NCBI GenBank assembly: GCA_945871045.1
Contig: CAMBUC010000001.1
Span: 1-39,766 of the forward strand
DNA: 39,766 nucleotides
Direction: 5' to 3'
Origin: an uncultured bacterium
GTDB lineage: Bacteria > Bacillota > Clostridia > Lachnospirales > Lachnospiraceae
Shown here in pieces: positions 41-35,754 of the stretch. The translations under genes and the position numbers were made by a program. The notes under the pieces were generated by a model. The model made no database searches, was not told the DNA's origin, and was given only the letters and a program-made list of their open reading frames with translations. Position 1 is the first letter of the stretch, and every line of letters begins with the position of its first letter.

Positions 41-98
41 AAAAGAAAAACACCGTTCAACCTTGAAATTTCAATGTTTTGAACGGTGTTTTTCTTTT
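41..98 (-). terminator. 20-bp inverted repeat downstream of the tRNA 3' fragment; probable tRNA terminator
   Basis: AAAAGAAAAACACCGTTCAA (41-60) is the exact reverse complement of 79-98; it directly follows the tRNA CCA on the minus strand. Confidence 0.7.
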
Positions 99-132
99 GG
101 CGCGCCATGTAGGATTCGAACCTACGACCTTC
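98..132 (-). mobile_element. Prophage att site: 3' fragment of a tRNA (probably tRNA-Arg)
   Basis: Minus strand GAAGGTCGTAGG-TTCGAAT-CCTAC-ATGGCGC-G-CCA = T-arm, 3' acceptor strand, discriminator G, CCA. No D-arm or 5' GCGCCAT upstream. Lies 11 bp from the integrase stop. Arg identity is inferred from the acceptor only. Confidence 0.85.
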
Positions 133-143
133 ACAACGTTCGT

Positions 144-1256
144 TTATTTTTCAATGGCTGAGAGTTCGGGTGTCGCAGTGGGTGTCGCATGCAGACTATT
201 TATCAGATCACGTGCTCTGTTTGTCGCTTGATCAGAGCTGTGGGTATAGATTTTAGATGTGACGGATATGTCTGTATGCCCCATCAGCTCACGGGCAACG
301 TTAATCGGGACACCCGCAGCCTGCAGGTCGGTGCAATAAGTGTGACGAAGACAATAGGGAACCAGATCGTCTGCGACACGGTAAGGAGGTAAGGCCCGTC
401 CACGGAAAGATTCGCACCCCATTGCGATATTCAATTCATTTTTAAAATAATCCCACATTCTCTGCATGGATGTTGAGGTAAGACGTCCGCCTTTTGTATT
501 TGTCAGAACGTAATCAAAGGGATCCTCTTTTCTGAACTGTAAATCGGATATCAGAATTTCCGGAATCGGAATAGAACGTTTTCCTGCTTCTGTTTTAGTG
601 GATCCGACGCCTGTCTTTCTCTTTACTGCCGAATCAACGTGCAGCATCTTCTTTTTGAAATCTACATTTCTCCATTGAAGAGCGGCCGTTTCTCCCGGAC
701 GCAAACCGCAAAACAGCATGAGTTTTATCCATAGTCCTGCACGATGATATTCTGCTACTTGCAGAATATATTTGCGCTCCTGCAACGTGATTGCCCGTCT
801 GCGAGAGACCGTTCCTTTCGGTTTGATCAAATGGGACGCTGGATTTTCAAGGACCAGATTATTTGATTTAGCTGTCTCAAAGATCCCGTAAAGCATGTTT
901 GCGATGCGATTGATCATTTTTTTCGAGGAACCTGACATTTCATTCATGACTTTCTGCGTATGTATTGCCCGGATGCTTTTCAGCTGCATATTTCCAAGAT
1001 ACGGCAGAATGTGACATTTTAAACAGGACATATAGCTGATATAAGATTCTTCGCTGACAGAAGGTTTCTTATAGGTTTCCAGCCATTCCAACGCCCAGTC
1101 TTTAAATTTCATGCTCTTTTCGATTTTCCTGACTCCGTTGTCCAGTTCCTGAAGTTTGAGAATTTCTTTCCGGACTAATTCCTTCTCCGTATCCGCCCTA
1201 ATTTTGTATCTTTTTCCTTCAAAGGTAATATCCTTACTGTACTTATATTTTTTCAT
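144..1256 (-). CDS. int: Tyrosine integrase
   Basis: CGLRPGE, K(T)EAG, LRHTYCT, LMGHTDISVTSKIYTH catalytic motifs; GGAG SD. Confidence 0.96.
   Translation of the reverse strand: MKKYKYSKDITFEGKRYKIRADTEKELVRKEILKLQELDNGVRKIEKSMKFKDWALEWLETYKKPSVSEESYISYMSCLKCHILPYLGNMQLKSIRAIHTQKVMNEMSGSSKKMINRIANMLYGIFETAKSNNLVLENPASHLIKPKGTVSRRRAITLQERKYILQVAEYHRAGLWIKLMLFCGLRPGETAALQWRNVDFKKKMLHVDSAVKRKTGVGSTKTEAGKRSIPIPEILISDLQFRKEDPFDYVLTNTKGGRLTSTSMQRMWDYFKNELNIAMGCESFRGRALPPYRVADDLVPYCLRHTYCTDLQAAGVPINVARELMGHTDISVTSKIYTHSSDQATNRARDLINSLHATPTATPELSAIEK
168..189. repeat. Direct repeat GGGTGTCGCA x2; probable integrase arm-type sites
   Basis: Copies at 168-177 and 180-189, close to the att core, inside the int 3' end. 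Confidence 0.55.
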
Positions 1257-1411: not shown

Positions 1412-2896
1412 CTATGCCGGATTGCAAATTTTACAAGGCTTATAGCCGGTACTCAGTGCTGCAGAAACACTGCTGAGAGGCACTTTATTGGATGCGCTCA
1501 TTCGTTTTACAGATGAGCAAGTGGATTTGTGGAATATCTTACTGTTCTTATTGCCGATATAGCTGGTTGTGACCGGAGTTTGTGGCTGTGGGTTTACCGT
1601 CGTTCCGCCGCCCGAAGGATTAGTTGGTGTGTTTCCACCCGGAGGCGTAACCAGGGTACTTCCGCCAGTACCGGCTCCCGCATCAGCTATAGTCAGATAG
1701 TTACTCTTATTCAAGTTATAGACTTTTCCGTTTGATGACAGAGAAACAGTACCAGACTTGAAAGTACCGAGCGTTTTACATCCGACTGCAGAAAGTCTGC
1801 TGAGTGTATCGGCAGAAGGGTGTCCATATGTATTATTTGATCCTGCAGAAATTACGGCATACTCAGGATGAATGACACTTAAGAAAGAGCTGGAAGTAGA
1901 TGTTTTGGATCCGTGATGAGCGACCTTCAGCACATCGACATCCTCAAACTTATCTAAATTCTGACTTTCAACATCAGAATCTATATCTCCGGTAAATAAA
2001 GCTTTTACTTTTCCGTAGTTTAATTGAGCAATTACACTGTTGCCGTTTGTATCACCATTATTATCTCCAGTTTCGATAATTTCAAGTTCTGCGCCTCCTT
2101 CAAGAGGAAGTACCATATCAGAATCATCCATGTACTGGGAATTCGGCTCAGACTGTACCGCTGCCCAATAATCGCGGTAAGTTGAGGTCGAGGAAGTATC
2201 GCCGGATCCAATAACTGTATCTACCTGATACGCAGCGAGTACATCATCTAAGCCACCAATGTGATCAGCGTCCGTGTGAGTAGCAATTACATAATCAAGG
2301 GCTCCGTCAACATACGGGCGGAGGTAATTAACTACCTGTTGGCCGTTGGCATTGTTTCCGCCGTCGATCAGCACTTCTGTATTACCAATATCGATGAGCG
2401 CAGCGTCCGCTTGTCCGACATCGATAAAATGTATCTTCAGTAATGGGAATGTGTTATCGACGGAAACGGATTGAGCAGCCTGATTCCAGCTGACGTAACC
2501 GCCAAAAGCCTCCAGCACGGCTCGGATTGGAAGATAAGTGCGATTATCTTTAATTACCGCAACAGTATCGTTTTCGACCTGGTATCCATTAATAGAAATG
2601 TTATTGGATCCGATCGGAACCTTAACCGTTTTTCCATCTTTCTGAACGATAGCAGTACGTGTATTTCTATCCCAATCAACGTCACAACCATAGGCTTCCA
2701 TTGTGGCTCTGAGCGGAACTTGTGTACGATTGGAGCTATCGACAAATGGAGAACCTGTTGACGCATTGAATTGAACGGCGCTACCGTTGATTGTTACACC
2801 GATCTGGGATGCGTACGATTGGATCTGCGGAATAAATACCGACGCAGCTACGAGAGCCAGCGACAAGAATAGCGATAACTTCTTTTTTCTTTTCAT
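1412..2896 (-). CDS. Secreted ComEC/Rec2-like metallo-beta-lactamase-fold nuclease with Cu-amine-oxidase N-like domain and C-terminal Ada-like Zn-binding domain
   Basis: Signal peptide; RTYLPIRAVLEAFG..VSW; IDVGQADA, THTDADHIGG, FTGD, KVAHHGS, YGHP; NSKIFH..C..GYKPCKICNP. ATG 2896 fits SD AAGGAGG. Confidence 0.88.
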   Translation of the reverse strand: MKRKKKLSLFLSLALVAASVFIPQIQSYASQIGVTINGSAVQFNASTGSPFVDSSNRTQVPLRATMEAYGCDVDWDRNTRTAIVQKDGKTVKVPIGSNNISINGYQVENDTVAVIKDNRTYLPIRAVLEAFGGYVSWNQAAQSVSVDNTFPLLKIHFIDVGQADAALIDIGNTEVLIDGGNNANGQQVVNYLRPYVDGALDYVIATHTDADHIGGLDDVLAAYQVDTVIGSGDTSSTSTYRDYWAAVQSEPNSQYMDDSDMVLPLEGGAELEIIETGDNNGDTNGNSVIAQLNYGKVKALFTGDIDSDVESQNLDKFEDVDVLKVAHHGSKTSTSSSFLSVIHPEYAVISAGSNNTYGHPSADTLSRLSAVGCKTLGTFKSGTVSLSSNGKVYNLNKSNYLTIADAGAGTGGSTLVTPPGGNTPTNPSGGGTTVNPQPQTPVTTSYIGNKNSKIFHKSTCSSVKRMSASNKVPLSSVSAALSTGYKPCKICNPA

Positions 2897-2919
2897 AATC
2901 AATTTCCTCCTTCACTGAT

Positions 2920-2952
2920 ATTTCAATCCACGCCTTCCTCGCGGAGAGCGAC
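2920..2952 (-). CRISPR. Solitary type I-C-like CRISPR repeat (no array, no cas genes)
   Basis: Minus strand GTCGCTCTCCGCGAGGAAGGCGTGGATTGAAAT (33 nt): GTCGC start, CGCTCTCC/GGAAGGCG stem, GTGGATTGAAAT end. Confidence 0.8.
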
Positions 2953-3000
2953 TGTATCTATCTGCTCATTAAAGAAAGCGAAAGATTTGCAGGATATTTG

Positions 3001-3279
3001 TCAGCAGAAATATCGTATTTCGCCGAAGTAGGAGACCCATTTTTCTATAATCTCGCAGCTTCGTGACTCGATAATTCTCATGATGTTTCGCAATACTTTT
3101 GAAGGTATTTGAGACTTATTATTGCACAACAAGCATTTTCCGGATCTCGTAATCCAAATTTTTGTTGTATTCTCTGCCGGAGAACCTTGTGAAACATGTA
3201 CGTGCACAGGTTCTAAGGGACGACTCTCGTTCGACCAAAAATAAACATTGTAAGATCCAAGTTTAAAAATTTGAGGCAT
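3001..3279 (-). CDS. DUF4160-family protein
   Basis: MPQIFKLGSYNVYFWSNE..EPVHVHV..TKIWI; overlaps the upstream gene; SD GGAGG. Confidence 0.8.
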   Translation of the reverse strand: MPQIFKLGSYNVYFWSNESRPLEPVHVHVSQGSPAENTTKIWITRSGKCLLCNNKSQIPSKVLRNIMRIIESRSCEIIEKWVSYFGEIRYFC

Positions 3280-3535
3280 TTTCAAATCCTCCTTCTTGAG
3301 AGAATTCAATAATAAGGTGTGCAGTGGATTCAATTACCTCTTGGAAGCGGTCAATATCGTTCTGGGTGAACTGATAAATATCTTCCCACGTATAATCTGG
3401 AAGATAGCAAGTAGCGTGACGGAATCCGTATTTTTCGTCTGGACGCTCAATATAGACTTTTACCCTGCCATCAGGCAGCATATCGGAATGGACGATTTCA
3501 GTATCATCATCCAGTGTCATAAATGGATACATCAT
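3263..3535 (-). CDS. Acidic hypothetical protein, partner of DUF4160
   Basis: 90 aa, SD AAGGAGG, 17-bp overlap with the DUF4160 gene. Confidence 0.75.
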   Translation of the reverse strand: MMYPFMTLDDDTEIVHSDMLPDGRVKVYIERPDEKYGFRHATCYLPDYTWEDIYQFTQNDIDRFQEVIESTAHLIIEFSQEGGFENASNF

Positions 3536-3614
3536 ATCGGTGATCCTCCTTGCATTTTGTCCGCCCCCTTATGTAAATAGAGAGGCGGACTACATTAAAC
3601 GAAGATAAGTTAGA

Positions 3615-4229
3615 TTAGTTTTTTACTGGGATATTGATTTCAACCGGATCACCGACGGAATCAAATGAATCATTGTGTGGCGCATTAATATGGATTGTCA
3701 CGTTTGCCAGGTCATCAGCACTACTGTTTTTTAAAATAAAAATTACATTGCCTGACTTTTTTACGTTTCCGATGAAATCACCGCCTACACTATCGCTCAG
3801 AAATACGCTGGCACTTACCTGTTCTTTTGTATTGGTTGTCATTACTGATTGATCCGGGTAGAAACTGATGGTGTCATCTGAAGTATTTTCAACATCAAAA
3901 TGTACTACAACGACAGCAGCTTCCTTATCTTTTTCGAGATCCAAGAGAGAAGCGGCATCATCAGTTGTGGCTATCAATTTTGAGATCTGAATTTCTGATG
4001 TTGAATATTTTATAGGTCCAGTTTCTCCTCCCAAGTTGATATCTTTGTTCGTGTAAACAACTTCTTTTCTCATTCCGTTTTGTTCTGTAACTTTTCCAAC
4101 ATCTGAATCAGTTTGCTTTTCGGCTTCTGAAGACAGTACAGAAGAATCATCTGATGCTGTACTTCCGCATGCTGCAAAGCTTACACACATAATAGTGGCA
4201 AGACAAAGCGTTAAAATTTTCTTTTTCAT
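3615..4229 (-). CDS. Lipoprotein (DUF4352-like); superinfection-exclusion candidate
   Basis: MKKKIL..FAAC lipobox, S/D-rich linker, beta-rich domain; SD AAGGAGG. Confidence 0.78.
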   Translation of the reverse strand: MKKKILTLCLATIMCVSFAACGSTASDDSSVLSSEAEKQTDSDVGKVTEQNGMRKEVVYTNKDINLGGETGPIKYSTSEIQISKLIATTDDAASLLDLEKDKEAAVVVVHFDVENTSDDTISFYPDQSVMTTNTKEQVSASVFLSDSVGGDFIGNVKKSGNVIFILKNSSADDLANVTIHINAPHNDSFDSVGDPVEINIPVKN

Positions 4230-4392
4230 TTTTATCCTCCTTGTATAAGTAAAATAATTGATAATCAATAAGACATATTTGCAAACATAAATGTTGCAAA
4301 TAAATTATATAATCCATTCAGGATTTAACTTACCGATAACTTGTCCAAAACATTTGTATGCATAGTTCTTTTCCGGCATAATGTCTACGGCG

Positions 4393-4824
4393 TCATTTTT
4401 CAAATTTCAACCGCAACAGTTCCTCGTTTAACCCTTCTGCATATGCAATCTGGCGACGGCTGAATCCTTCGTACTGATAGATCAAATCATCCGGAATCAG
4501 GAGTTCTGCTGCGAAACGATTTGCTTCCATTTCAATCCGGTCTGAGAGAAACAATGTCTTGTGCCGTATAAAATAGCAGTTTTCATTACGATGCATGATA
4601 GCGTGGCCCAATTCATGTGCCATAACCAAACGTTTTTCGCGCTCAGGCAGACTCTCATTTAAGAAGATACAACGATGCCTTTTTAGATACATATAGCAGC
4701 CACAACGGGATCCAAGTGCCCCAATGAGAACTTCTATATTTAAAGCCTTTGCGATTTCAAACGGGTTTCTTGTTTCATATTTATGGATGTAACGAGAAAC
4801 AATTTTTTGTATGTCATTTCTCAA
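4393..4824 (-). CDS. ImmA/IrrE-family metallopeptidase
   Basis: AHELGH and EANRFAAELL motifs; adjacent to repressor; start TTG 4824 or GTG 4833. Confidence 0.92.
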   Translation of the reverse strand: MRNDIQKIVSRYIHKYETRNPFEIAKALNIEVLIGALGSRCGCYMYLKRHRCIFLNESLPEREKRLVMAHELGHAIMHRNENCYFIRHKTLFLSDRIEMEANRFAAELLIPDDLIYQYEGFSRRQIAYAEGLNEELLRLKFEK

Positions 4825-4833
4825 CGCACACAC

Positions 4834-5295
4834 CTACTTTTTATTTTTATTCGGATTATATAATTCCTTATTAATGAGTTTGAGTCGCTTTAACATAATC
4901 TCAACCTGTGCAGCAAACATTTCTCTGTCAGCTTCAGGGATATCCTCTCCGTCAAAACTGGCTGGTCCAGCCTCTTCGTTCGAAAGCTTTTCCATTATAT
5001 TTTTTAAGTCGTTGGCAATATCACGTTCGTCTTTGGGGGTCAAGACTCGGTTCGAGTTTTCGCTATCAGAAACGTTATTAGAAAACGCGTGTAAAATACC
5101 ATCATCTTCAATCAACGCACTTTTGCTGAGCCCGAAATGATCAGCTATTTTTTGAATTGCTCCCATGCGTGGTTCTCTTGATCCTATTTCCCAAGTGTGT
5201 ACAGCTTTCCCAGATACTCCTGCTATTTTGCCTAATTCATCTTGAGTAAGCTCAAAGCGAGATCTTAGCAACTTAATATTTTCAGATACTCCCAT
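4834..5295 (-). CDS. XRE HTH prophage repressor (ImmR/CI-like)
   Basis: LTQDELGKIAGVSGKAVHTWEIGSREP HTH; divergent from cro. Confidence 0.92.
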   Translation of the reverse strand: MGVSENIKLLRSRFELTQDELGKIAGVSGKAVHTWEIGSREPRMGAIQKIADHFGLSKSALIEDDGILHAFSNNVSDSENSNRVLTPKDERDIANDLKNIMEKLSNEEAGPASFDGEDIPEADREMFAAQVEIMLKRLKLINKELYNPNKNKK

Positions 5296-34860: not shown

Positions 34861-35754
34861 ATGGCAATTAAAGGAGTGAAAGCCGTAATCAACGGTCAGA
34901 CTTATAATCTTACTCTGAACTCTGGAACCGGAAAGTACGAAGCGACTGTAACAGCGCCCGCAGAGTCTTCTTATAATCAACCCGGACATTACTATAATGT
35001 TCAGGTGACAGCAGAAGATGACGCGGGCAATACGACCACGAAAGACGCCTCGGACGGTACGCTCGGCGCATCGTTACAGCTCCAGGTAAAGGAAAAAGTT
35101 GCACCGATCATCACAATCACCGCCCCGACTGAAGGTGCGACAATCACAAACAATAAGCCTACTATCGCTTGGGCGGTTACGGATGAAGACTCCGGTGTGG
35201 ATCCAGACACGATTTCGATTAAGATCGACAGTGGGTCCGTTATTACGTCTGGCATATCCAAAACAGCATCGGGTAAGGGCTTTACCTGTAGCTATACACC
35301 AACGACGGCGTTATCGGATGGATCTCATACAATTACAGTCAATGCATCAGATTACGACGGAAATGCAGCAACAGCGAAAACAACTACTTTCAAAGTGGAT
35401 ACTGTTCCACCTACGTTATCTGTCATTTCGCCGGAAGAAGGTCTTGTAACGAATCAGGCTACTATCACGGTTTCTGGTACGACAAATGATGCGACGTCAT
35501 CACCGGTGACATTGACTATCAATTCCGATCCTGTCGAAGTTGGAGCAGACGGTGCTTTCTCCACCACCATCACACTTAACAGCGGAGAGAACACAATTAC
35601 AATTATTGCTACTGATTCTGCAGGCAAGAGCACGACGGTAACGAGACATGTGACGCTTGATACTGGTGCGCCGGTCTTCCAGTCCGTAACGATAACACCA
35701 AATCCGGTAGATGCTGGAAAGACTTTTGTCATCAGTGTTGAGGTAACCGACTGA
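34861..35754 (+). CDS. Ig-like repeat tail protein
   Basis: Thr-rich; AEDDAGN, ASDYDGN, ATDSAGK, VDTVPP, LDTGAP motifs. Confidence 0.88.
   Translation: MAIKGVKAVINGQTYNLTLNSGTGKYEATVTAPAESSYNQPGHYYNVQVTAEDDAGNTTTKDASDGTLGASLQLQVKEKVAPIITITAPTEGATITNNKPTIAWAVTDEDSGVDPDTISIKIDSGSVITSGISKTASGKGFTCSYTPTTALSDGSHTITVNASDYDGNAATAKTTTFKVDTVPPTLSVISPEEGLVTNQATITVSGTTNDATSSPVTLTINSDPVEVGADGAFSTTITLNSGENTITIIATDSAGKSTTVTRHVTLDTGAPVFQSVTITPNPVDAGKTFVISVEVTD

Follow-up and report, generated by a model that had tools for sequence, protein, structure and literature searches.

Solitary CRISPR repeat units (SRUs) of phages and prophages have been catalogued as candidate RNA anti-CRISPRs (Racrs) by Camara-Wilpert et al. 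2023 (PMC10651486), and type I-C accounts for about 1,007 of the 2,193 SRUs in the published table (the label 'I-C' occurs 2,014 times, two per row). The SRUFinder definition behind this catalogue asks for a known repeat matched at 90% or more in both identity and coverage with a bit score of at least 41.1, for an intergenic position in a virus or prophage and for the absence of any partial repeat above 70% within 100 nt. According to the same source, nine tested Racr candidates inhibited, and RacrIC1 from a Bifidobacterium pseudocatenulatum prophage works also from a polycistronic position. Two other close systems are the type I-C array repeats cut by Cas5c (PMC8524198) and the I-C crlRNAs of CRISIS (10.1101/2024.12.27.630466).

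The locus described here shares features with each of these systems. The 33-nt repeat in the window (the whole stretch of DNA that was analysed, 39,766 nt) is identical to row 808 of Supplementary Data 1 (PMC10651486), which is listed as a type I-C, untested Racr candidate with 97% identity to an array repeat (one mismatch), 100% coverage and a score of 58. Both are intergenic, solitary and located in a phage, but the present locus differs from the catalogued row in having damaged alleles in the population. As in the case of RacrIC1, an I-C repeat mimic follows a small gene on what is probably a shared transcript; yet RacrIC1 follows acrIC5 and has proven activity, whereas the present repeat lies in the leader of another gene, behind genes that match no named Acr. 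With the array repeats cut by Cas5c (PMC8524198) it has in common a 2-nt overhang, a hairpin and an 11-nt tail starting with UGG, although array, leader and cas genes are absent here, the stem carries one internal mismatch and a competing fold is predicted. As with the CRISIS crlRNAs, a single repeat with an 11-nt handle stands directly after a small gene cassette; those crlRNAs, however, precede cas5c and have a PAM-adjacent promoter target (10.1101/2024.12.27.630466), and neither applies here.

In this study, we tentatively propose, at a little under even chances, that the element is a host-derived I-C repeat that likely serves as a weak, Racr-type decoy in an accessory mRNA and is likely eroding. 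In a host with a type I-C system, Cas5c would cut after G22 and leave the 11-nt handle in place, Cas7 could then coat the next ~34 nt with the ribosome site and start codon, and the resulting target-less Cascade would draw subunits away from real crRNAs. Silencing of the downstream gene by its Cas7-coated Shine-Dalgarno (SD) sequence and AUG may occur as an incidental effect. We count in favour of this reading the catalogue identity, the polycistronic precedent of RacrIC1, the retained UGG, the I-C systems of the genus, the arrays in the habitat, the lack of a PAM-adjacent prophage target, the sense bias among lone repeats of other phages and the erosion data. As one of about a thousand catalogued I-C mimics, the repeat adds little alone. 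The initial annotation, which had assigned the element to type I-C, read it as an active decoy or switch and tied it to a nuclease gene, is partly supported: the class assignment is right, the active role and the nuclease link are not supported, and the novelty was overrated.

A catalogued solitary type I-C repeat in a prophage gene run

The window is a prophage with integrase, repressor, holin and endolysin. On its minus strand, a run of co-oriented genes leads from the repressor over an IrrE-type peptidase, a lipoprotein, a 90-aa gene and a DUF4160 gene to the repeat, and from there to a 494-aa hydrolase and the integrase (Table 1). The repeat is intergenic, with a stop at 3001 on one side and the ATG at 2896 on the other. 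As the initial annotation had recorded, it lies on the sense strand of the accessory operon and ends 7 nt before the SD AAGGAGG, which is followed by 9 nt and the ATG. A consensus scan at the repeat gave neither an own promoter nor a terminator; since there is no consensus promoter, the repeat is probably co-transcribed within a repressor-to-integrase accessory mRNA. A single contig of RNA run X15 (depth 2.5) covers only 2946-3120 and ends a few letters into the repeat; its depth is too low to be informative, and contigs cannot show transcription.

Table 1. Features of the repeat and its surroundings in the prophage window.
Feature	Position	Strand	Basis
Solitary type I-C CRISPR repeat, 33 nt	2920..2952	minus	Sequence match, profile score, published catalogue row
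Shine-Dalgarno AAGGAGG of downstream gene	2906..2912	minus	7 nt 3' of repeat; predicted in loop of short leader hairpin
Predicted competing hairpin, takes the repeat's 5' arm	2946..2967	minus	RNA folding
Pseudo-spacer, 34 nt after repeat, spans SD and start codon	2886..2919	minus	Target search
IrrE/ImmA-type peptidase and HTH repressor, head of co-oriented run	4393..5295	minus	Domain match
Predicted lipoprotein, same accessory run	3615..4229	minus	Sequence
90-aa conserved gene, no known family, overlaps DUF4160; pair travels as cassette	3263..3535	minus	Database comparison
DUF4160 gene, 92 aa, ends 48 nt upstream of repeat	3001..3279	minus	Domain match
494-aa predicted secreted protein: copper-amine-oxidase N (stalk) domain, ComEC-type metallo-beta-lactamase fold, Ada-like metal-binding tail	1412..2896	minus	Domain match
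Tyrosine integrase, closes run	144..1256	minus	Domain match

A profile of 31 different array repeats gives the window repeat 34.9 bits, and every site in 707 kb of shuffled DNA stays below 16 bits with the same profile. Because of this difference, together with the 97% identity to an array repeat in the published SRU table, the sequence is not a chance match. The 33-mer occurs once in the window, and no other match was found in the host assembly (G000, 2.07 Mb) when up to 10 mismatches were allowed. When a partner repeat was sought in the 100-nt flanks, the best local score was 15-18 of 33 positions, with an average of 16 for random stretches of the window; in other words, no partial repeat above 70% lies within 100 nt (best 45-55%, equal to background), in agreement with the earlier remark that a second repeat is missing. 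The repeat thus conforms to the SRUFinder definition throughout, its identity, coverage and score being those of the published row for the identical sequence, and it is a genuine I-C solitary repeat unit that the catalogue already contains (PMC10651486).

Several other identities were considered and rejected. A CRISPR mini-array would have two repeats around a spacer, and only a single repeat is present; a second repeat hidden in the signal-peptide codons reaches 17/33, i.e., background level; and a GC-rich hairpin just 5' of the 90-aa gene (window 3539-3573, minus strand), in which a change in L050 turns a wobble into a Watson-Crick pair, has a negative profile score as a decayed second repeat. 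A role as attachment site does not fit either, as the repeat occurs once and lies 1.7 kb from the integrase. The likely attachment site is, we presume, at 97-135 (minus strand), which resembles the 3' part of a tRNA; ARAGORN calls no tRNA in the window. No Rfam family reached its gathering score in the window, and around the repeat only chance matches were returned. A further 20-bit match to the repeat profile (35109-35141, minus strand) lies in a coding region, has no 3' handle and is probably due to chance.

The product of the downstream gene is a predicted ComEC-type hydrolase, for which 'nuclease' is a putative label. For the DUF4160 gene, toxin-antitoxin is likewise a putative label. Searches of the neighbour genes in Pfam, PHROGs, NCBIfam and PADLOC matched no named Acr, no acr or aca gene was identified beside the repeat, and in the ESM Atlas the 90-aa protein matched only unnamed clusters. 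Between the hydrolase gene and the integrase, a strong hairpin (1371-1396) resembles motifs found 3' of DUF4160 in many prophages.

Processing, guide function and host CRISPR systems

Taken in isolation, the repeat folds into the I-C layout of a 2-nt 5' overhang, an 8-position stem, a GCGA loop and an 11-nt 3' tail. In the predicted stem, positions 3-10 pair with 15-22 and include a U6-G19 wobble and a C7.A18 mismatch. The Cas5c cut is predicted between 2931 and 2930, by analogy to the biochemistry of PMC8524198, and the 11-nt handle would correspond to 2930-2920; the layout of a Cas5c-cleaved repeat suggested by the initial annotation agrees with this prediction. That annotation had also pointed to the G-U pair and the mismatch as defects of the stem. 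The mismatch stands as such, whereas the wobble is normal in the repeat family (e.g., in the array repeats of L228 and L410), so that C7.A18 is the only defect. A18 is present in none of 136 related array repeats of the same sub-family and breaks a pair that is kept in 136/136. It recurs in two other catalogued SRUs, there with a Watson-Crick C6-G19 pair (PMC10651486 table).

A processed repeat could also guide Cascade. In this alternative, the RNA would direct Cascade to silence the promoter of the DUF4160 pair upstream, or that of another gene, as in CRISPR-supervised defence cassettes, and the position directly after a small gene pair indeed fits the I-C crlRNA layout (10.1101/2024.12.27.630466). 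A short hairpin is predicted 3' of the handle. Yet the pseudo-spacer coincides with another gene's leader. It has no TTC/TTA-adjacent seed of at least 7 nt in the window and no PAM-adjacent prophage target above chance, and its best match in the host covers 11 positions at one site. Similarly, the repeats of L297 and L300 have no guide target in their own loci. Because no PAM-adjacent seed was found in the window, the I-C crlRNA layout does not apply, and we rejected membership of this class, which would include a PAM-adjacent promoter match and a place in a cas locus before cas5c. For targets within the prophage the guide model is largely refuted, and we regard it as highly improbable overall.

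The decoy that we propose instead depends on hosts with a type I-C system. In the host assembly, which is 93.75% complete in 291 contigs, no cas1, cas5c, cas7 or cas8c was found. Within the genus, cas7 is found in 4 of 22 genomes, with cas5c and cas8c in those same four, and I-C-type repeats occur in 5 of 22. As regards a parent array, no repeat within 3 mismatches was found in 60 GTDB relatives or 300 order-level genomes. In gut sequencing runs with the prophage, repeat-spacer-repeat joints with 33-35-nt spacers were recovered, plus a collapsed repeat that is two letters different; closely matching arrays therefore occur in the same habitat. Elsewhere, single I-C repeats behind an AT-rich leader (L402 and L411, at ~3014 and 4001, and L019:1501-1532) appear to represent collapsed host arrays; L402 and L411 have the leader in common, with different repeats.

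Folding in context and natural variation

Within its transcript, the repeat hairpin is predicted to be outcompeted by the upstream hairpin. In context, its basal stem has a predicted pairing of 0.19; the median for 150 array repeats is 0.94, and 3 of them are as low. These values are folding predictions, and the fold can change when Cas5c binds.

Among ten other haplotypes of the locus (X1 and X2 excluded as possible sources), five match the window allele and five carry further G>A changes that break stem or handle. The window allele was found in 5 of 7 runs (X3, X4, X6, X8 and X13, of which X3, X6 and X13 are near-identical and possibly source-related), spans pig and bovine gut runs and is the commonest. 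G20A together with G29A is present in L017, L049, X5 and X9, and G22A in L050; G20 and G22 belong to stem pairs, with G22 at the predicted cut site, and G29 lies in the handle. All three segregating changes break stem or handle, none is compensated and all are G>A transitions. In the window allele, the stem base is unbroken and the UGG 3' of the cut is unchanged, features that Cas5c reads according to PMC8524198. Across four assembled haplotypes, the 33 nt of the repeat show 3 changes, whereas neutral sites show 7 in 423 (p 0.03), or 15 in 613 (p 0.06) when two upstream genes are added. The repeat is thus no more conserved than neutral sites, and its surplus of changes is of marginal significance and was noted post hoc.

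The same data weigh on the idea of a fully active Racr under selection, in which A18 would tune binding or cleavage and the damaged alleles would be dead ends in CRISPR-free hosts. The inhibition by nine tested candidates (PMC10651486), the frequency of the window allele in pig and bovine gut runs and its presence in the published table, as well as the recurrence of A18 in two more catalogued SRUs, speak for it. With half of the other haplotypes damaged, no conservation beyond neutral sites, low in-context folding and a host assembly without cas genes, we nevertheless consider it improbable. The variation, the fold predicted to be outcompeted and the host assembly without cas genes do not support the active decoy or switch claimed in the initial annotation either.

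As related phages carry damaged versions of the repeat, the decoy is likely weak at best. Most hosts of the genus seem to have no I-C system, which may have relaxed selection and allowed the stem- and handle-breaking G>A changes to spread. Erosion has to be set against the prevalence of the window allele, however, and A18 in two other SRUs (PMC10651486) could mean tolerance instead of decay. In addition, a neutral scar predicts the same decay: the repeat would have entered by recombination with a host array (e.g., via a matching spacer, or with a cassette beside the array), would never have been functional and would survive simply between genes. That every change is a G>A transition lacking a compensating partner fits such a scar, and many of the lone repeats in CRISPR loci are spurious duplications in the judgement of Shmakov et al. 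Conversely, no repeat-free version of the junction was found. On balance we hold the scar to be unlikely, although it is hard to tell apart from an eroding decoy and retains an appreciable share of the probability. With the cut site intact in one allele, the stem base broken in another and both stem and handle broken in a third, the locus offers a natural series for assessing how many of the catalogued Racr candidates are live and how many are relics.

Gene neighbours of lone repeats in this and other phages

The special tie to the nuclease gene proposed in the initial annotation found no support. Among 159 loci with homologues of the downstream gene (80 genomic and 79 other viral, all at most 54% identical, homologues of 57-64% not included), none carries a repeat, whereas similar repeats do occur next to the upstream DUF4160 pair, as well as next to other genes. 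Of 43 viral DUF4160 loci, five contain a repeat (L283, which equals L017, L293, L297, L300 and L303; Fisher p 0.005, with kin not independent). These repeats sit at different junctions and belong to different types, and all are sense and adjoin an SD.

For the neutral scar, it is favourable that the repeats beside the DUF4160 cassette in L297, L300 and L303 are also degenerate and of different types, and that in one host genome (L235) the cassette lies ~650 nt past an array end. A trailer repeat captured together with the downstream gene was rejected, with 0/159 homologue loci near a repeat or array. This idea is unsupported because array trailers seldom have an SD and ORF directly after them (1 of 17 trailer ends). 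The same two counts also speak against a neutral scar, as does the 3' handle, which trailers often lose and the window repeat keeps. In L300 (3686-3718 and 4284-4315) and L297 (3684-3715, at 11 bits only, and 4284-4316), degenerate I-C repeats flank the pair of 90-aa and DUF4160 genes in a cassette-like manner.

To place the arrangement in a wider context, IMG/VR was scanned for the 3' half of the repeat followed by an SD, with the antisense version as control. The sense scan returned 40 loci, comprising 22 lone full repeats (19 distinct), 5 arrays and 13 partial or chance matches; the antisense control returned 33, with 12 lone repeats (10 distinct), 11 arrays and 10 partial matches. An ORF follows the SD in 17/19 sense versus 5/10 antisense cases (binomial p 0.017, Fisher p 0.03), the latter being 6/10 if a truncated duplicate is swapped for the full copy. 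This bias, which would not be expected from a strand-blind scar, hints that such repeats act as RNA; it says nothing direct on the window repeat. The 19 distinct sense repeats (L326-L365) come from unrelated phages, many from virion or DNA-metabolism operons, and portal, terminase, tail, tape-measure, dUTPase and recombinase genes are among those that flank lone repeats. Supplementary Data 1 of PMC10651486 does not contain three further lone repeats of the present scans.

The geometry raises the possibility of a Cascade-gated leader, in which the Cas5c cut and Cas7 over the SD would switch the gene off (or stabilise the mRNA) according to host CRISPR status, with the damaged alleles as escapes. 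Both SD and AUG are no further than one spacer length from the handle, unrelated phages show the same geometry before portal-, tail-, dUTPase- and recombinase-region genes, a repeat-like hairpin in L293 holds the SD of an integrase, and the marginal excess of changes in the repeat would agree with escape. However, an SD after any lone repeat is likely because phage intergenic gaps are short, the downstream genes have no common function, and there is no conservation before homologues of the 494-aa gene. Gating of this particular leader is, in our view, quite unlikely. A literature search gave, by title and abstract, no description of solitary repeats in leaders before ribosome sites, which is limited evidence that this placement is undescribed. 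The broader proposal that lone I-C repeats upstream of ribosome sites make up a class of phage leaders that has gone unrecognised, combining decoy and CRISPR-status switch, with the present lineage escaping by mutation, is a long shot that we would give little more than one chance in ten. If leader placement did constitute a Cascade-gated switch, CRISPR-repeat mimicry would extend from inhibition to phage translation control.

In the L293 locus, the 3' arm of the I-C repeat-like hairpin (4799-4836) contains the SD, and the last letters of the hairpin are the ATG of a serine integrase gene; the hairpin may represent a translation control site. The accessory cassette is joined to another integrase in L017 (2997-4184) than in the window (144-1256), and therefore moves between prophages.
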